From contig DAIPKA010000004.1 in NCBI GenBank assembly GCA_036769985.1, forward strand, positions 161,096 to 225,095: a DNA stretch of 64,000 bases, given 5' to 3'. This DNA comes from Candidatus Hydrogenedentota bacterium. GTDB lineage: Bacteria; Hydrogenedentota; Hydrogenedentia; Hydrogenedentales; SLHB01. The translations under genes were made by a program, and so were the position numbers. Shown piece by piece: positions 54,997 through 63,486 of this stretch. How positions within the stretch are numbered: the first letter of the stretch is position 1; every line of letters starts with the position of its first letter. The notes below the pieces were generated by a model, which did not search any database, was not told the origin of the DNA, and worked only from the letters and a program-made list of their open reading frames with translations.

Positions 54997-55458
54997 TCAG
55001 CGGCGGTAGGTACCGATCAGTTCGGCCTCGCCGAGAACATGCCCCTTCATAGCTGCCAGCACATCCTTCTTGGTTGCGCCGGGTGCCAACGCAAGCATTG
55101 CATCCAAGGCATACAGCTTGAAGACGTAGCGGTGCACCGGACCGCGAGGCGGCGCGGGCCCGCCATAGCCCACCTTGCGGAAATCGTTGACGCCTTGCCG
55201 GGTGCCATCCTCGAGCTGCCGGCTCGTCGGCACGGCCTCCGGCAACGCCCGCGCATCGGCGGGTATGTTGAACATGACCCAGTGGATCCACGTGCGCGCC
55301 GGCGCGTCCGGATCGTCGTTCACCAGCGCGAACGACCGGGTGCCTTCCGGCACGTCCGACCACTCGAGTCTCGGCGAGATGTCGGCGCCATCAGCCGTGT
55401 GCATCCTCGGAATCGGCGCACCATGATCGAACATGGGACTGGTCAATCGCAGCGCCAT
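54997..55458 (-). CDS. YbhB/YbcL-family PEBP (Raf kinase inhibitor-like) protein.
   Basis: DPDAP...HWV..NIP...GY.GP.PP..HRY is the PEBP signature. Confidence 0.88.
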   Translation of the reverse strand: MALRLTSPMFDHGAPIPRMHTADGADISPRLEWSDVPEGTRSFALVNDDPDAPARTWIHWVMFNIPADARALPEAVPTSRQLEDGTRQGVNDFRKVGYGGPAPPRGPVHRYVFKLYALDAMLALAPGATKKDVLAAMKGHVLGEAELIGTYRR

Positions 55459-55461
55459 GAC

Positions 55462-55779
55462 CTAATCTCCTTCTTCGATGGGCGGCTCCGGAGGCTGATC
55501 CCGCAAGGCCCGGATCGCCTCGAGTCCGGCCCAGTAGGCAGCGAGTTGTTCGCGTCCGTCCTGCGTGAGCCGATAGTCGGTATGGGGAATCTTGCCGTTG
55601 AAACTCTTCCGCACCTCGATGTAGCCGGCTTTCTCAAGGCGATCCATGTGCGACGAGAGATTGCCTTTCGTCAGACCCAGCGTCGTGCACAGGAACGCAA
55701 AATCAGCCACATCGAGGCCCGACAGGATCGTCAGGATTCGCAATCGCGCCGGCTCATGTATGATACGGTCGAGTTCCAT
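55462..55779 (-). CDS. Winged-helix transcriptional regulator (PadR-like).
   Basis: ARLRILTIL...LGLTKGNLSSHMDRLEKAGYIEVRK...YRLTQDGREQL. The TGATG stop/start overlap with the upstream membrane-protein gene indicates translational coupling. Confidence 0.65.
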   Translation of the reverse strand: MELDRIIHEPARLRILTILSGLDVADFAFLCTTLGLTKGNLSSHMDRLEKAGYIEVRKSFNGKIPHTDYRLTQDGREQLAAYWAGLEAIRALRDQPPEPPIEEGD

Positions 55780-56546
55780 CAGCTCTGGTCTTCGCTTTCG
55801 GCCTCGGCCGTCTCCACAAGCCCTTGACGCACAAGCGCTTTGAGCCGATGCAGGGCATAACGACTGAAGAGGTGGCCCACCAGGATCGCCACCAAGCCGT
55901 AGCCGAACACCGGCACGATCATGTTGAGTATCTCGAGATTCACATCCGTGAACCGGATAGGTACCCCCAGGAGGATCAGCACGGCGTGCAGGCCGTAAAG
56001 CACCGGCCAGATGAACGCCCAGAAGCCCAGCCGCTGCGTGATCGTCATCGCGATGAAGAACGGCACCATATACAACGCCGAAAAGGGTTGCGTGTACTGG
56101 AAGGGAAGATACCGCCCCGCGATCAGCAGCACGCCCAGCAGGTGATACGCCGCCAGGCCAATACCGGCCGCGTACACCCACGACGACGCCTTGATGCTTT
56201 CCCCGCTGCCGCCGAGATAGGCCGCGTATCCTTCCTCGCCGTAAATCCACTGGCTAATCCGGTAGATCCGGTCGCCACCCCATTTCGGCACTATGAACCA
56301 CGCCATCGCCACGATCATGCCGACGATCCCGGCCGCACAGAGCAGAATCCAAAGAACATTCTCGCTTCGGTACGCGCGAAGCGTCAAGAACACGACCGCC
56401 GCGATGAATACCCCCAACATCACAATGCAGATCCATTGGATCAGAAACGGAATCGTGCGATTCTTCGCGTAACGGCCGGCCCATTTCGCAATCTCGCGCG
56501 GATCGGCGAACGCATCGCTGGATCGATTAGGGACTTTGGCCGCCAT
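55779..56546 (-). CDS. Polytopic membrane protein (hypothetical) co-transcribed with the PadR-like regulator.
   Basis: About 7 hydrophobic helices. A GGAGG RBS. Confidence 0.65.
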   Translation of the reverse strand: MAAKVPNRSSDAFADPREIAKWAGRYAKNRTIPFLIQWICIVMLGVFIAAVVFLTLRAYRSENVLWILLCAAGIVGMIVAMAWFIVPKWGGDRIYRISQWIYGEEGYAAYLGGSGESIKASSWVYAAGIGLAAYHLLGVLLIAGRYLPFQYTQPFSALYMVPFFIAMTITQRLGFWAFIWPVLYGLHAVLILLGVPIRFTDVNLEILNMIVPVFGYGLVAILVGHLFSRYALHRLKALVRQGLVETAEAESEDQS

Positions 56547-56611: not shown

Positions 56612-56896
56612 TCACGGCTCGCCGGCCGCCGGCACCGGCGCGTAGAAGAGCGCCTCGTGATCCGAAAGCTGGCCTTGCTCGATCATCCGCCGGATGCCAC
56701 TGAGGTCCGCATCACGAGGCGTGCCCGCACTCCCCGGAGCCGCCGAGGTCTCCTCGACCACACGGACGAAATGCCCACGCGCGTGATCCACCGACAGCGA
56801 GGCAAAGACCACCGCGCAAAGGATTACCATGAACACGAAGGCCCGCTCATGGGCGCCCCACTCATGCGTCTTCACGGCGATCCTCCTTCGCGCCAC
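56612..56896 (-). CDS. Small single-TM protein (GTG start) immediately downstream of the giant fusion gene.
   Basis: One TM segment (FVFMVILCAVVFASLSV). It overlaps the upstream gene's 3' end by about 35 nt. An AGGAGG-like sequence precedes the GTG. Confidence 0.35.
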   Translation of the reverse strand: MARRRIAVKTHEWGAHERAFVFMVILCAVVFASLSVDHARGHFVRVVEETSAAPGSAGTPRDADLSGIRRMIEQGQLSDHEALFYAPVPAAGEP

Positions 56897-59800
56897 GTCG
56901 GCAGCGATCGCAGTAGATGCAGTCCAACTCGCGGACGGTGCGTACGCCCAAATCGCAGCGCGCCGGCCGCGGCGTCGGTACGTGCCTCCGCCATGGCCCC
57001 AACCCGTTCGCCAACGCCAGAAACGCCCCGGCCGGACACAGATTGCGGCACCAGAATCGTGGGAACACCGCCGAGAGCAAGACGAACAACACCGCCAGTA
57101 CCTCGACGCTCCGTGTCCGAACCGCGCTGAACACGCTGATCAGCGGATCCGCATCGAGCACGTCATACGCGCGCGTGACGGCGAACAGCAGAACCAGCAG
57201 CGCCAGCAACACATATTTTGCAGCGCGGCCGTAACGCCAGACCCCCTTGTCGATGGCGCCCCGGTACCGGGCGGGGCAGAGCTCCCCAACCAACTCCTGA
57301 AGCGCGCCGAAAGGACAGACCTGCCCGCAATAAACATTGCCGAAGAGCACCACCACGGCCGGCACAACCAGCGCCAGGAAGACCGGGCCCGTCGGGCTGG
57401 CCGCATTCACCCGGCCCCCAAGCAACGCCATGACCTGGTGCGTCGAGTACTGAAGGTTAAGGCCGAATCCAAGCACGGCCACCGATGCGAGCAGCATCAT
57501 CCGACGCACCCACGCGTTGGGGCGATACCGTATTCCGATCGCCATGGCCGTGAACGCCGCGAGAATCACGAATTCACGATGCACCTCGCGCCGCGTCTCG
57601 GTCTCCGTTGGGATCTGGCCCAACACCTGGCTCGCGAAATTCCGGCCGGCCGTCTCCAGTGTCCTCAAGATGGCATCCGTGGTTATCGTTGCCCCGGCCA
57701 CGGCATCGACGCCGGCGAAGGGCTGTTTCGCCAGAAGGTTGCGTCCCGCGAGCGACCCCAGCCAACTCGCCAGGCGATCTTCATAGATGGGCGTCTCGTG
57801 CGACTCGACGATGCGGAAGCTTCGGAGTTCGCCGTCGCCCCCAACATACATCGCGAGTATGATCGGCCCGCCGAATCCCATGACGCCCGGCGCCAGTTTC
57901 GGCGTTAGGAACACGTAACCCTTGCCGCACTCTGCCTCGTCCGAAGTCTCGTAATACTCGAGCACACAGCCGTCCGGAAGCACGGCATGCCGCTCGTCCA
58001 CCTCCGTGTCCCCCACGAGCGTCCGCGTGACCTCCCGGGCATGTTCCTCCCGGACCGCGCGGTGGCCGGCCGTGACGACATGCGAGCCGATCAAGCAGCA
58101 AGCCGCAACCCCGACGAGCAGATAGCCACCCGGCCGAGTCCGTCGGTCAAACCAATCGCCAACGGCCTCCCGAGCCGGTGGGAAAGCCATGGCCGGAAGA
58201 TTCGCCACCATCACGAGCGCCAGCACGGCCAGCGTCGGCCCGACGCCCCACAGCGGCAACAGCACCAGGCCCGTCAGTAGCGCGCCAACCGCGCCGCCGA
58301 CGTGATCGAGCGTCTCGAGACCGGCACCTGCCGAGGCGGCCGTCCTTCCGGATGCCGCAAGCCGGTGTACCGCCAAGGGGAAGCACGCGCCCACGGCCGC
58401 ACCGCCAACGCCGAACAACAGCACAAACCACACGCGCGGCACGCCGTCCGGAATCGCCCAGGCAAGCGCCAGCACACCGAGAACGACGGCCGTGAAACAC
58501 GGTAACGCCCAGGGAGGCTCGGACCCGCGTCGATCGAGCAGCCGGGTCGCTACTGCCCCACCGATGCCTGCGCCGGCCATGTACAGCGCCGCGATCACGC
58601 CCACGTGTAGGAACAGCGATCCGAACCGCGCTTGATACACGAACATCAGCGCCACGCTCAGCGCCATACCCACCGCGCCGGACGAGAACACGAGAAACTC
58701 GCCATCGAAGGCGCGACTCCCTAGCCCTCGGCCGCCTCGGAACAGGTAGACACAACGCAGCAACACGTAGAGAATGGCCGGGCAGATCGCCAGAAATAAA
58801 CCCGACGACAACAGCACGCCGAGCTCCTCGCCGACCGAACGCCAGCCCGCTTTTCGTAAGGCCACCAGCAAGCTGAACAAGAGCGCTTTCGGGCTGCCGT
58901 CGGTATTCAGCAGCAAGGCCGGAGTGCTCTCCTCCTGGACCTTCTTGTAGGCGTCCATCTGAAAGGCGATGCGGTCGGCCGGATACAGTCTCGCAACACC
59001 CTCAGGCGGATACACGGCCTCGGCGCCGTCGATCCGCTTGTACCGATTCAGGAGACCGCGCGCGAACATACTCAGGCCATCGCTATCGGACGCAATGAGC
59101 CAACTCTCGCCGCCCGGCTTGAGCACAATGCTCCGGAACACAGAATCGAGCGTCGTCAGCATCGACGCCCCAAGACGCGTCAGCTCACCGCCGAGGTAGT
59201 TCTCACCTCCGGATACGCGCACCGACACGACGCCCCCCTCCGCCAGGATGCCCCGGAGACCCAGGAAGAACTCCTGCGTGCAGTAGCGGTTGAGCACCAA
59301 CGTCGTGACATCGGGCAAATTCACCACCGCAAGGTCGTACCGCGCGTCCGTCGTGTCGATGAACCGGCGCACGTCCACGCCGGGAATGTCAAGGCGACCC
59401 ACCACTTCCGCGTAGTCCGAAGGCAACACCGGCAGCAGCGCCCCGGCAAACTCCGGATCGGAAGGCAGCCACGTCACCCGCTCGACGGACGGGAAGCGGA
59501 TGAACTGCGCGCAGATGCTCAGCGCACCTGGCCCAATCACCAAAACGCGCTTCGCCTCCGGCTGCTGCGCGAGATGGAGCGCGGCCACCTCGGCACCGTG
59601 CTCGCGATCCGGTAGCGCCTCGCACACGCCGCCGCCCGACACGACGACAAACTGGTCCTCACGCGCGCCGAAGAGATACCGCGCCTGGGCCGTGGCGAAG
59701 CAGCCCTGATAGGCCTCGGCGGTCAGTAGCCGGGTCCACTGCGCTCGGTCTCCTCGATCGGCCCAGCGCTCGCCCCCTCCCAGCACAAGGGCCGCAACAC

Positions 59801-60512: not shown

Positions 60513-62201
60513 CTATTCCTTCTCCCCGAAAACGAGGGCCTCGAAGATGGTGTAGGTGGCGCCCTCACGCCATGCGTCGGCCGGCAGGCCCGCTTTCATG
60601 GAGAGATGGGTGAGCGTCGTGGCAAGGTCCCAACCTTGCTCCGGCGCGACCTGGGGCAAGAACACGGCGCTGCGCCCGTTCTTCGAGAGCACCATCCCGT
60701 GCTTGCCCAGGACGATTTCGTTGTACGAACCCACCGGCACCGGCGCCGTCAACGCGCTAATCTCGAACTCGAGATCCGGCAGTTCCTTGGCCTGGACGCG
60801 ATCAAACCGGTAATCGTTCACGCCCGCATCGATGGCGTGGTCAATCACGGCCTTGTACACCTCGCGGCGCGGCACGATCTCGCCGATGCAGCCACGCAAC
60901 TGCCCGTGCTCGTGCAGCGTCACGAAGGCGCCCATGATCTGCTTCATGCCCTCCGTCACCGGCACGTCAAGATCCTCCGGCGTCGGCGTGTCCTTGTGTT
61001 TGAGGTAGTACTCGAGCGTACGGCGCGCCAGCTTGAGGAGCGCCTGCTTGTCCTCATCCGAGAGTGAAGCCTTCGCCTCGTCGGGCGTCTCCTCATCGAC
61101 AACCGCTTCCCTTTCCGGCCACGCGCCGGTGAACGCAGCGCTGACATAGCTAACGGCATTCGAGTAGTCGCCCGTCATCCGGCCCGAGGAATCGTAGTGA
61201 CACAAGTGGCCCTCGGCATCCGCGGGCAGCATCGCCAGCAGAACACCCAGCGGACACCGGCCGCAGATGGTCGCCCCCGTCCCATCCACGTAACCGAAGA
61301 ACCCCTCCACATCTTTCTTCTCGGCAAAGGCCCAGGCGTCCATGTCGAGTCTCTTGATGCTCTCCGGAACATCGCTCTTGAACGGCGCGTAGCCGAACCT
61401 CGGGCCATAGTGCGTGAAGTCCGTGCTCACGACAACGAGTGTCTCGCGGTCGACCAGGCCGGCCAAAATCCTCCCCATCTCCCGGGCCGTGGCCACGTCG
61501 AGCTGGCCAACGACGATCGGCACCAACGTGAACTCGCCCAAGACGCGCTGCAACAGCGGCAACTCGATCTGAACGCTGTGTTCCTGGGCATGGGCCGCCG
61601 GCTCGCTCCGAAAGACGGTGTGTGTCTTGAGTGCGGCCATGAAACCGAGATCGAGCGCGACCTCTCCGAGCGGCGTCGAGTAGTGCGTGTAGCCCGTCGG
61701 AACACTCGCGGCATTCGACATGGGCACCGAGTGTGTCGGCCCCATGACCACCACGCGCCGGTAGTGCTTGCCCTTGATCGCGCGCAGGCCATAGCCCGCC
61801 GTCGGGCCTGAATACACGTATCCGGCGTGAGGGAGCACCAGTGCGATCACACCCTCCAGCGTGTCGCCCGTGGCCTCCTCGACAAAACCATCGATCTCGG
61901 CCGTCAACAGCGCCGGTTTCGCCTCATACCATCTCCCCGGCAACGGGGATCGAAACACTTGCTTGGTCATGGTTTCCACCTCGGCTTCCGTGGCCGCCGT
62001 TGCGGCTCCTTCCATCCACGCGCGCCCTAACCACGCGCCCAGCCCCACGCCCACACTCAGGAGCGTCACCCAGACTACCACGCGTAGCGCGGATGCTCCC
62101 GCGCACCAACCGGCCGGCGCTACGACCGTGTGTCCGTCAAGGTATCTCATCGCGATCGCCCTTTCCGATGCGAGCCTGCCGAACGCCATCATCCTGCCCA
62201 T
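60513..62201 (-). CDS. Fused AmmeMemoRadiSam system protein B (Memo-like) and protein A (AMMECR1 domain), with an N-terminal TM segment.
   Basis: The Memo signature LPHAGYVYSGPTAGYG and a C-terminal AMMECR1 signature GAFVTLHEHGQLRGCIGEI are both present. An N-terminal hydrophobic segment LRVVVWVTLLSVGVGLGAWLG is also present. The exact start is uncertain (62150, 62192 or 62201). Confidence 0.85.
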   Translation of the reverse strand: MGRMMAFGRLASERAIAMRYLDGHTVVAPAGWCAGASALRVVVWVTLLSVGVGLGAWLGRAWMEGAATAATEAEVETMTKQVFRSPLPGRWYEAKPALLTAEIDGFVEEATGDTLEGVIALVLPHAGYVYSGPTAGYGLRAIKGKHYRRVVVMGPTHSVPMSNAASVPTGYTHYSTPLGEVALDLGFMAALKTHTVFRSEPAAHAQEHSVQIELPLLQRVLGEFTLVPIVVGQLDVATAREMGRILAGLVDRETLVVVSTDFTHYGPRFGYAPFKSDVPESIKRLDMDAWAFAEKKDVEGFFGYVDGTGATICGRCPLGVLLAMLPADAEGHLCHYDSSGRMTGDYSNAVSYVSAAFTGAWPEREAVVDEETPDEAKASLSDEDKQALLKLARRTLEYYLKHKDTPTPEDLDVPVTEGMKQIMGAFVTLHEHGQLRGCIGEIVPRREVYKAVIDHAIDAGVNDYRFDRVQAKELPDLEFEISALTAPVPVGSYNEIVLGKHGMVLSKNGRSAVFLPQVAPEQGWDLATTLTHLSMKAGLPADAWREGATYTIFEALVFGEKE

Positions 62202-62434
62202 CGGCCCGGATGGCCCACTTCACCGGCTGCAAGTCCGGCCCTCGGGCCTGGATAGCGCCTGCCACGCACCGCCTCGACAACGCGCCGCGGCCTCAGGCGC
62301 CCACGCAAAACACCGAGCGCCGCAGCCATCGCCGTCGCTCTGAAGAACGCCCTCCGGTTCATTCAGCGCTCGCCTCCAACATCGCCCTCTCTGCGATCAC
62401 CAGTATACCACCGCATCTCCCCAGACAGGGCCCG

Positions 62435-63406
62435 TCATGTCCATATACCGGCGATCGGAGTGCCGCACTCCGGACAGGCACCGCCTTCCATGCGATTCTG
62501 CCGAACCGTGTAGCCGCGCCGTTCGACCAGCAAGACGCCACAGCCGGGACAATGCGTGTCCTCGCCGCCCGGACGCGCCACATTGCCGATGTACACGAAG
62601 TACAACCCCTCGGCCCGCGCGATCTCCTTCGCCCTCTCCAGTGTATTCTCGGGCGTTGGCGGCAGATTCTTCATCCGATACTGCGGATAGAACCGCGAGA
62701 AGTGAAGCGGCGTGTCGCGGCCGAGATTCTCGGCGATCCAGCGACTCACGCCGCGAAGATCCGCATCCGTGTCATTCAGCGTCGGAATGACCAGGTTCGT
62801 CACTTCAACCCAAACGCCGAGCGACTTCGACTGCACCAGCGTCCGCTGCACCGGCGCCAGCGTCGCATCGCATACATCTCGGTAGAACGCATCCGATATC
62901 GATTTCAGGTCGATGTTCCCCGCGTCCACGTAGGGACATAGCCGCGCCATCGGCTCCTCATTGATGTAACCGGCCGTAACCAGGGCGTTCTTGAGCCCCG
63001 CCTCGCGCACGGCCATGCACGTGTCAAGCGTGTACTCGTAGTACACGAGAGGCTCCGTGTACGTATACGCGACGGACCGGCAGTCGTATTCGCGGGCCGC
63101 CTGCGCCACGAGCGCCGGCGGAAACGGCTTTCCCGGGTAGTCCTCCGGGTTGGCCTGCGAGATCTCCCAGTTCTGACAGTTCTTGCAGTGGAGATTGCAG
63201 CCCACTGTCGCCAACGAGAGAATACCCGTGCCGGGCAGGAAGTGAAACAGCGGCTTCTTCTCGACGGGATCCACGTGCACCGAGCACGGATGTCCATACG
63301 TAACCGCCACCAGCTTGCCGTCCACATTCACGCGGATCCGGCACTCGCCGCTCTGACCCGGCGCGATGATGCATCCCTTCGGACACAATGCGCATTGGAC
63401 ATCCAT
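62435..63406 (-). CDS. AmmeMemoRadiSam system radical SAM enzyme (PflA-like).
   Basis: The CNLHCKNC radical-SAM CxxxCxxC motif is present. An N-terminal Cys cluster CALCPKGC...GEC and a C-terminal CPGC...CPEC zinc ribbon are also present. I favour the ATG at 63406; the track uses a TTG at 63433. Confidence 0.85.
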   Translation of the reverse strand: MDVQCALCPKGCIIAPGQSGECRIRVNVDGKLVAVTYGHPCSVHVDPVEKKPLFHFLPGTGILSLATVGCNLHCKNCQNWEISQANPEDYPGKPFPPALVAQAAREYDCRSVAYTYTEPLVYYEYTLDTCMAVREAGLKNALVTAGYINEEPMARLCPYVDAGNIDLKSISDAFYRDVCDATLAPVQRTLVQSKSLGVWVEVTNLVIPTLNDTDADLRGVSRWIAENLGRDTPLHFSRFYPQYRMKNLPPTPENTLERAKEIARAEGLYFVYIGNVARPGGEDTHCPGCGVLLVERRGYTVRQNRMEGGACPECGTPIAGIWT

Positions 63407-63486
63407 GGCACGGCCCCTGTCGCGATACCCCAATTGTGCGCCCCCGCAATCCCGCCGTCAAGCCTTCCAGACCGTTGCGGAACCCG

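Follow-up and report, generated by a model that had tools for sequence, protein, structure and literature searches.

The window analysed here, a stretch of 64,000 nucleotides (64 kb) from a Candidatus Hydrogenedentota bacterium (contig DAIPKA010000004.1), carries on its minus strand an AmmeMemoRadiSam system comprising a radical S-adenosylmethionine (SAM) enzyme, AmrS, and a single protein, AmrBA, that joins a Memo-like domain (AmrB) to an AMMECR1 domain (AmrA). Comparison with related loci shows these genes within a predicted five-part cassette, with the order amrS, a small open reading frame (ORF) with a putative twin-arginine translocation (Tat) signal, amrBA, a gene for a giant membrane protein, and a tail module, and the order is conserved across phyla (Table 1). 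Both the hallmark genes and the joining of B to A had been recorded before; the surrounding cassette appears, within the literature covered, to be new. A preliminary description of the stretch had reported a complete system at 60513–63406, and scans with TIGR04335, TIGR04336, and TIGR04337, all above cutoff, bear this out; it had placed the source among the Planctomycetota, and the source is instead a Candidatus Hydrogenedentota metagenome-assembled genome (MAG).

Coordinates are those of the window, and the GC content of the cassette region is 64–67%. Proteins were scanned with curated NCBIfam (TIGR04335, TIGR04336, TIGR04337) and Pfam models, AlphaFold2 models were searched with Foldseek, and NCBI gene calls were taken from contig DAOOPW010000004.1 (GCA_035388445.1, a Candidatus Hydrogenedentes MAG). 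The compared set comprises about 90 related loci. A genome scan yielded 531 species-level genomes with a relative of the fusion; the 80 best loci, in each of which the match covers both the Memo and the AMMECR1 domain, were kept and searched by tblastn with the window proteins. These 80 loci come from Hydrogenedentota, Planctomycetota, Verrucomicrobiota, Kiritimatiellia, Lentisphaerota, and Victivallales, with a few bins carrying other labels. Flanks extended up to 10 kb per side and were shorter at some loci; a locus with enough flank is termed informative.

Table 1. Genes, domains, and segments of the cassette region, in the order of transcription (window coordinates)
Feature	Coordinates	Strand	Evidence
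amrS, AmmeMemoRadiSam radical SAM enzyme, 323 aa	62435..63406	-	TIGR04337, Pfam Radical_SAM, NCBI call
unannotated small ORF, 57 aa, MNRRAFFRATAMAAALGVLRGRLRPRRVVEAVRGRRYPGPRAGLAAGEVGHPGRWAG	62189..62362	-	profile, co-occurrence, dN/dS
amrBA, N-terminal anchor + Memo-like AmrB + AMMECR1 AmrA, 545 aa	60513..62150	-	TIGR04336, TIGR04335, P0001
hydrophobic helix at N-terminus of fusion, predicted signal anchor, VVVWVTLLSVGVGLGAWLG	62025..62084	-	AlphaFold2, homologues
Memo-like (AmrB) domain, residues 87-357 of the 562-aa ORF	61131..61943	-	TIGR04336, Pfam Memo, Foldseek, MEMO1 motifs
AMMECR1 (AmrA) domain, residues 387-558, LRGCIG	60528..61043	-	TIGR04335, Pfam AMMECR1, Foldseek
giant membrane protein, 1180 aa	56862..60404	-	Fer4_5, FMN_bind, AlphaFold2, Foldseek
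spermidine-synthase-fold domain, residues 232-520 of giant	58845..59711	-	Foldseek (TM-score 0.65-0.72)
tail ORF, 87 aa (94 aa from GTG at 56896)	56612..56875	-	profile, called hypothetical gene on source contig

The longest ORF for amrS, 62435–63433, begins with TTG; NCBI places the start at the ATG at 63406. AmrS scores 381.1 bits against TIGR04337 (cutoff 220) and contains the motif CNLHCKNC (CxxxCxxC), an N-terminal CxxCxxxC...C, and a C-terminal CxxC...CxxC, and its Pfam scan returned Radical_SAM and Fer4_12 only. The PflA-type activase models TIGR02493 and TIGR02494 score 43–48 bits on AmrS, below their cutoffs of 174–232; by sequence, AmrS is a relative, not a member, of the glycyl-radical enzyme activase family. 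AmrS has no signal peptide and is the lone cassette protein lacking an export signal.

The longest ORF for amrBA, 60513–62201, encodes 562 aa, and the NCBI start corresponds to M18. The AmrB domain scores 206.8 bits against TIGR04336 (cutoff 26) and 187 bits against Pfam Memo, and the AmrA domain scores 151.9 bits against TIGR04335 (cutoff 99) and 163 bits against Pfam AMMECR1. An alignment with MEMO1 shows that the MEMO1 motifs PHAGY, GPxH, EHS, SDFxHxG, and ICGRxP are conserved in the AmrB domain, and residues R436, G437, C438, I439, and G440 of the AmrA domain are invariant among 36 homologues. The AlphaFold2 model of the fusion has a mean predicted local distance difference test (pLDDT) score of 89.3 and matches MEMO1 (7l5c; TM-score 0.88, 29% identity) and the archaeal AMMECR1 homologues 1zq7 and 1vaj (36% identity). 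AmrS, AmrB, and AmrA are encoded on one strand inside 2.9 kb, and the motifs quoted in the preliminary description (CNLHCKNC, HAGYVYSG, and LRGCIG) are all present in the translations. The locus is a true AmmeMemoRadiSam system; every membership feature that was tested is present.

The fusion is read in one frame, as had been claimed. In particular, an identical 545-aa protein stands on an NCBI record (P0001) as 'AmmeMemoRadiSam system protein B' of a Candidatus Hydrogenedentes MAG, and all of the 120 best homologues, examined from 3687 proteins that match at E ≤ 1e-10 among 8000 candidates scored, carry both Pfam domains (IMG label 'protein B/protein A'). Proteins named 'amrB' by the Prokaryotic Genome Annotation Pipeline are also fusions in Ideonella (464 aa) and on Segatella plasmids (491 aa). 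The fusion, which had been presented as notable, is thus common (thousands of proteins) and already named in databases, and alone it is no discovery. In one metagenome contig (L085, 3237–6004), AmrS and the fusion are each called as two pieces, which could reflect assembly frameshifts or real splits.

The interval between AmrS and the fusion measures about 150–280 nt in most loci and contains a conserved ORF of 50–65 codons. The consensus begins with M-x-M-[KT]-R-R-x-F-[LI] and a short Ala/Gly-rich hydrophobic stretch, continues as P-R-R-x-x-x-A-x-R-x-x-x-Y-P-G-x-V-x-x-L-(7)-P-G-x-W-x-G, and ends there with a stop. Across 38 sequences, the residues that never vary are RR, F, G, W, and the final G. 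The window's member begins with the twin-arginine-type sequence MNRRAFFRATAMAAALGVL and is preceded by a GGAGG motif 10 nt 5′ of the ATG. The TIGR01409 TAT_signal model matches 14 of the 38 members at E ≤ 0.05, one of them shown above the cutoff (19 versus 16.7 bits); no curated family other than TAT_signal matched the small ORF or the tail ORF. The terminal [KR]-W-[AS]-G resembles the first four positions of the glycyl-radical fingerprint, a weak likeness that involves variable positions and serves as a lead only.

The small ORF accompanies AmrS. A profile of the family has one match in the 64-kb window (E = 3e-15) and one match per locus in 62 of the 62 loci with AmrS; it also matches the start of locus L061, where AmrS would lie past the contig end, and has no match in the other loci of the 80-locus set that lack AmrS. 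The stop and start of AmrS and the small ORF overlap in many loci, and where AmrS lies 1–8 kb from the fusion (L025, L038, L047, and L075) the small ORF stays with AmrS. Because the two co-occur throughout, overlap at stop and start, and are displaced jointly, a coupling of AmrS to the small protein is suggested. The possibility that the small ORF represents the start of the fusion protein in a shifted frame was rejected: the ORF always ends with W-x-G and a stop, the fusion has a signal of its own, and the ORF tracks AmrS when the genes are apart.

The giant gene starts 108 nt from the fusion stop (60404 and 60513), the distance given in the preliminary description. The AlphaFold2 model of its product (pLDDT 87.1, predicted TM-score 0.85) reveals, in order, seven transmembrane helices, a spermidine-synthase-like (SpeE-like) domain, eight transmembrane helices, a flavin mononucleotide (FMN)-binding domain, and a NapH-like module of five transmembrane helices that contains two CX3CP motifs followed by a four-Cys C-terminal site. 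Pfam Fer4_5 (PF12801) matches with 61.8 bits over two stretches and FMN_bind (PF04205) with 37.5 bits. The FMN motif is DAVAGATIT (AGAT in the window, against a family consensus of VDAVSGATxTS), an SGAT-type flavinylation context in which G904, A905, and T906 are invariant, and residues C1026, C1030, P1031, C1119, C1123, and P1124 and the four C-terminal cysteines are likewise invariant. In the SpeE-like domain, the GGGDG motif for decarboxylated SAM is replaced by GPGAL, the motif-I glycines are kept, and acidic residues (D316, D357, and an NLPD motif) are invariant.

The protein had been described as SpeE-like and NosR-like. A SpeE-like fold and a NapH-like module are present, but the models fall short of their cutoffs: 47.1 bits versus 1000 for the NosR model NF046105, with only the C-terminal part aligned, and 23.4 versus 249.6 bits and 20.4 versus 22.9 bits for the SpeE models TIGR00417 and PF01564. 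The giant is neither NosR nor a spermidine synthase, and its likeness to SpeE is one of fold only. It resembles the membrane spermidine-synthase-like proteins of PRK03612 in having an N-terminal polytopic region followed by a spermidine-synthase fold, and differs from them in score (35 bits versus a cutoff of 472), in the change of GGGDG to GPGAL, in the predicted extracytoplasmic location of the domain, and in its fusion to further modules. Homologues are annotated generically, as '4Fe-4S binding protein', 'spermidine synthase', or 'quinol dehydrogenase membrane component'. In loci L033, L042, L043, L069, L071, and L074 (from Kiritimatiellia, Verrucomicrobiota, Planctomycetota, Lentisphaerota, and Victivallales), the alignment to the giant ends at about residue 720–940, the NapH-like end being divergent, missing, or separate, and in L090 (7852–11880) the giant is called as three pieces, again perhaps through assembly frameshifts or real splits.

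The tail ORF overlaps the giant stop by 14 nt and encodes one transmembrane helix and a conserved ...MIEQGxLSDHEAxFY. Its profile matches 50 loci. In about 34 of them the matching sequence continues the giant in frame at its C-terminus; about 16, the window among them, have it as a separate overlapping ORF. Because the tail is fused in most homologues, many giant homologues measure 1270–1335 aa. Where the tail ORF is separate, gene fission or a recoding site is possible.

The genes of the cassette are found together across Hydrogenedentota, Planctomycetota, Verrucomicrobiota/Kiritimatiellia, Lentisphaerota, and others. Specifically, tblastn places an AmrS orthologue (57–74% identity) upstream of the fusion at 62 of the 80 loci, and AmrS is in the available upstream flank (up to 10 kb) at 57 of 70 informative loci. 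As the next gene downstream of the fusion, on the same strand, 61 of 73 informative loci carry a full-length giant homologue, which often overlaps the fusion by 4 nt or lies a few nt from it; this linkage holds at a protein identity of 31–57%. Of the three outcomes that would have spoken against the preliminary description (scores below the cutoffs, B and A in separate frames, and a neighbourhood conserved nowhere), none was observed. Both flanks are informative at 66 loci: 51 of these have AmrS, small ORF, and giant together, 8 have none of the three, 4 have the giant only, and 3 have all but the giant. The same arrangement was found at loci reached independently: around three of three distant giant homologues (36–40% identity), and at four of four places reached through the small-ORF profile, where radical SAM enzyme, small ORF, Memo/AMMECR1 protein, and giant follow one another, with overlaps of 4–10 nt in these two sets. 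When all ORFs of 100 aa or more in the loci were clustered against one another, no other family proved to be conserved around the fusion. The earlier view of three genes in tandem is correct as to their co-location on one strand, but a conserved 57-aa gene lies between AmrS and the fusion and a tail element follows the giant. At loci L012, L024, L027, L045, L055, L058, L063, L064, and L076, the fusion occurs without AmrS, small ORF, or giant in the available flanks; several of these lone fusions keep lipoboxes, and their partners may lie elsewhere in the genome.

It is hardly credible that the additional parts are non-functional, the small ORF being a chance frame in GC-rich DNA and the giant a neighbour by shared locus ancestry. 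The small ORF is not called in the NCBI annotation of the source contig, and off-frame ORFs are abundant in a region of such GC content, as this explanation would have it. Against it, the ORF is kept across phyla at 25–50% identity, with the same residues and a stop right after the terminal Gly, in low-GC and high-GC genomes alike; its profile matches once per locus, always after AmrS and, apart from the contig end of L061, never without AmrS; and the ratio of nonsynonymous to synonymous substitution rates (dN/dS) is 0.2–0.6 for the most closely related pairs, and 98% of the 471 pairs that could be scored fall below 1. Many metagenomes call it as a gene, those of lower GC content as 'hypothetical protein' or 'twin-arginine translocation signal domain-containing protein', and the linkage of the giant persists at the low protein identities given above. 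Gene callers thus miss, in GC-rich genomes, a conserved gene of a well-known system.

The AlphaFold2 model of the fusion contains a helix at residues 37–68, with pLDDT 87–90 over residues 41–60. In the window the helix is plain hydrophobic, without lipobox or cleavage site. A hydrophobic N-terminus is present in about 106 of the 120 homologues, though its sequence is not conserved: at least 28 have a lipobox (LLSCG, LISCG, LTGCS, and similar), several from Lentisphaerota and Victivallales have a short, cleavable-looking signal peptide immediately ahead of the Memo domain, and the other signal-bearing homologues have one helix, with a charge bias in which the N-terminal flank is the more positive in 76 versus 20, favouring an N-in orientation. 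A start further along the ORF, at M63 or M78, would leave the helix out; it was considered and rejected, since homologues retain the hydrophobic N-terminus. Because the lipoprotein and secretory signals of the homologues only make sense for export, there is strong reason to think that the Memo–AMMECR1 fusion crosses the cytoplasmic membrane and stays attached to its outer face. The helix in the window is, by homology, most likely an N-in signal anchor that places the Memo and AMMECR1 domains outside the cytoplasmic membrane, and the exported B–A domains are most likely in a different compartment from signal-less AmrS. Human MEMO1 and AMMECR1 share the folds, and MEMO1 its metal-site motifs, with the fusion, but they are separate, cytosolic or nuclear proteins with no radical SAM partner, whereas here the two domains form one predicted-exported polypeptide encoded in an operon.

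One alternative, close to the preliminary description, is an ordinary three-part system, in which B and A would be tethered on the cytoplasmic face of the membrane beside a linked redox protein and the small ORFs would be inessential. We consider this quite unlikely. It has on its side that amrS, the two fused domains, and the anchor are all confirmed, and that the helix of the window is a plain one; yet homologues swap the helix for lipoprotein or cleavable secretory signals, to which 'tethering' does less than justice, the small ORF is under purifying selection and universally linked to AmrS, and the FMN domain of the neighbouring giant is predicted to be of the extracytosolic, flavinylated type.

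The predicted topology of the giant is consistent with export of the fusion. Its Arg/Lys-rich loops are at residues 62–70, 133–141, 188–194, 556–561, 626–633, 684–689, and 740–751, and because the number of helices (eight) between the SpeE-like and FMN domains is even and the loops are so positioned, the two domains are predicted to lie on the same side, opposite the Arg/Lys-rich loops; the side of the FMN domain was assigned from helix count and charge bias only. The model argues strongly that the FMN and SpeE-like domains are on the same outer side as the fusion domains, and equally that the CX3CP and four-Cys iron–sulfur sites face the cytoplasm. A published survey (Meheust et al. 2021, PMC8238504) describes NapH-like modules whose FMN domain is extracytosolic and which combine in modular fashion with extracytosolic oxidoreductases, most of whose reactions have not been assigned. 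Over its C-terminal 380 residues, the giant resembles such NapH/NosR-type modules in having FMN_bind with the GAT flavinylation site, membrane helices with two CX3CP motifs, and a Cys cluster, and, as those modules pair with an adjacent extracytosolic enzyme, the giant is predicted to pair with the fusion; it differs in being fused behind a region of seven transmembrane helices, SpeE-like domain, and eight transmembrane helices, and in having a Memo–AMMECR1 partner. The main text of PMC8238504 makes no mention of Memo, AMMECR1, radical SAM, or spermidine. Taken with the structural model, these features point strongly to a NapH-like, flavinylated transmembrane electron conduit dedicated to an exported Memo-like metalloenzyme.

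In our estimate there is about an even chance that the locus represents a widespread AmmeMemoRadiSam subtype, a five-part cassette directed at the cell envelope. Such a cassette could work in four steps: (i) AmrS, in the cytoplasm, would act on the 57-aa twin-arginine protein at its C-terminal tail; (ii) the Tat pathway would move the modified small protein over the membrane; (iii) the anchored Memo and AMMECR1 domains would process it further; and (iv) the FMN domain of the giant would supply or remove electrons. We propose this mechanism, with the small protein as substrate or carrier of AmrS, tentatively, as a possibility more open to doubt than the cassette itself. Radical SAM enzymes modify proteins before export elsewhere, for example anaerobic sulfatase maturases, and QhpD, which acts on the small subunit QhpC of quinohemoprotein amine dehydrogenase. 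Those systems resemble the proposed one in having a gene for a cytoplasmic radical SAM enzyme beside that for an exported small protein whose maturation continues outside; by comparison, AmrS is PflA-like and lacks SPASM, and the small protein has a putative Tat signal, not a dedicated ATP-binding cassette exporter, and no Cys, Asp, or Glu crosslink motif.

Several observations weigh against this proposal and against the reading of the locus on which it builds. The Pfam scan of AmrS detected no SPASM or other peptide-recognition domain, although no search was aimed at such elements; the window's own small ORF falls below the TIGR01409 TAT_signal threshold; and three loci with AmrS, small ORF, and fusion have no giant within the available flank. 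The topologies are drawn from hydropathy, charge bias, signal-like motifs, and the helix counts of the AlphaFold2 model. The SpeE-like domain keeps nucleotide-binding-like residues despite a predicted extracytoplasmic site, where SAM is not expected, which the favoured model leaves unexplained. Finally, a search did not find the small ORF at the amrS loci of Ideonella, Trichlorobacter, and the Segatella plasmids, so the small protein cannot be a family-wide substrate; by this measure it is specific to the present cassette subtype.

The loci of the latter three differ from the window in other respects also. Ideonella and Segatella have amrBA–amrS pairs, in the opposite gene order, and Trichlorobacter has a lone amrS. 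The Ideonella fusion has no signal, and no giant lies within its 5-kb flanks. The Segatella fusion has a hydrophobic N-terminus: on the Segatella hominis plasmid NZ_CP137560.1 (L084, 3414–5831), the N-terminus of the fused amrBA is signal-like (MRKIVLVVLLTMCMMMEA) and after amrBA come an amrS that is short at its C-terminus and about 2.6 kb of unannotated, degraded-looking sequence. Exported fusions may thus exist outside the cassette clade.

An alternative that we regard as unlikely reverses the roles of AmrS and the small protein. Here, the small twin-arginine protein would be an escort that binds folded, iron–sulfur-loaded AmrS and takes it through Tat as a hitchhiker, so that the whole set works outside; the giant would give electrons through its FMN domain and perhaps SAM through its transporter-like helices and SpeE-like domain. 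AmrS is the sole cassette protein without a signal of its own, iron–sulfur proteins are typical Tat cargo, and the export of unsigned partners along with a signal-bearing partner is established (PMC10924467). The pair resembles such hitchhiker subunits in that a short protein with an RRxF[LI] signal is encoded beside a cofactor-bearing unsigned protein; in the present case the mature part measures only about 30 residues, a small handle for co-export, and the would-be passenger is a radical SAM enzyme. The tight translational coupling and unbroken co-occurrence of the two genes suggest a stoichiometric complex with AmrS, and the use of Tat instead of Sec would otherwise be odd for a mature peptide of that size without cofactor ligands. 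Co-export would also bring AmrS, AmrB, and AmrA together on one side of the membrane, like the versions without signals, and would explain why a SpeE-like domain predicted to be extracytoplasmic retains its motif-I glycines and, after strand 2, an invariant acidic residue. On the other side, SAM would be needed outside the membrane, which is without precedent, and the match of the giant to the major facilitator superfamily is below threshold (23.1 versus 33.4 bits). No radical SAM enzyme acting outside the cytoplasm turned up in our literature search, and to our knowledge none is known; nor do we know of a bacterial SAM exporter.

If the small protein ferried folded AmrS out, this would be the first radical SAM system working outside the cytoplasm, with the giant delivering electrons and possibly SAM, a consequence that we hold to be rather unlikely. 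A similar weight attaches to the corresponding consequence of the substrate proposal, that the 57-aa protein would be the first identified AmmeMemoRadiSam substrate, a ribosomally made peptide that AmrS would modify, Tat would export, and the Memo and AMMECR1 domains would finish.

In a further alternative, which we consider very unlikely, AmrS would mature the fusion or the giant, for instance by modifying one residue before or during export in the manner of anaerobic sulfatase maturases, with the small Tat protein acting separately, as an accessory membrane subunit of the complex. Outside its own family, AmrS is closest to protein-activating enzymes (TIGR02494, E = 9e-13), and the three hallmarks co-occur even without the small ORF, which a shared mutual target would explain. 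This alternative leaves open why the small ORF tracks AmrS and not the fusion when the two are separated, and the data nominate no modification site.

As an AmmeMemoRadiSam system (TIGR04335/04336/04337), the locus is typical in its three co-located hallmark domains, with scores above the cutoffs and conserved motifs, and differs from the known form in its fused B–A protein with an export or anchor signal, the Tat small protein after AmrS, and the 1180-aa redox protein with its tail. Within the reachable literature, to which the Memo contexts of Burroughs et al. 2019 do not belong, the five-part cassette as a whole, export of the fusion, a Tat protein linked to AmrS, and a dedicated conduit are undescribed. 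The literature covered on the function or context of the system contained incidental mentions only, and the study of Burroughs et al. 2019, which lies beyond it, may already show the linkage of the giant gene; that study (J Biol Chem) is said to have analysed Memo gene contexts. Memo and AMMECR1 occur from archaea to humans and are tied to human disease, without an agreed biochemical reaction, and the bacterial three-gene system has had no substrate since its definition. The cassette would narrow the search in three ways: the compartment would be the outer face of the cytoplasmic membrane, the redox partner a dedicated flavin and iron–sulfur conduit, and the 57-residue protein is nominated as a direct partner or substrate of AmrS.

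Downstream of the cassette, at 54997–56546 on the minus strand, lie closely packed genes for a 255-aa polytopic membrane protein, a 105-aa ArsR/HTH_34 regulator, and a PEBP-family protein. These three and a TPR protein were considered as cassette members and rejected: none has a tblastn match in the 80 loci, and none has a relative in the ORF clustering. A promoter-like site (TTGACG, 17 nt, CACAAT), a consensus match only, lies just upstream of amrS at 63433–63461 on the minus strand. Promoter-like sites number 5 versus 1.4 expected from shuffled sequence, terminator-like sites are not above expectation, and neither was used as functional evidence, since a consensus match of this sort does not demonstrate function. 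Upstream, beyond the TPR gene, lie pectate lyase and GH123 genes.

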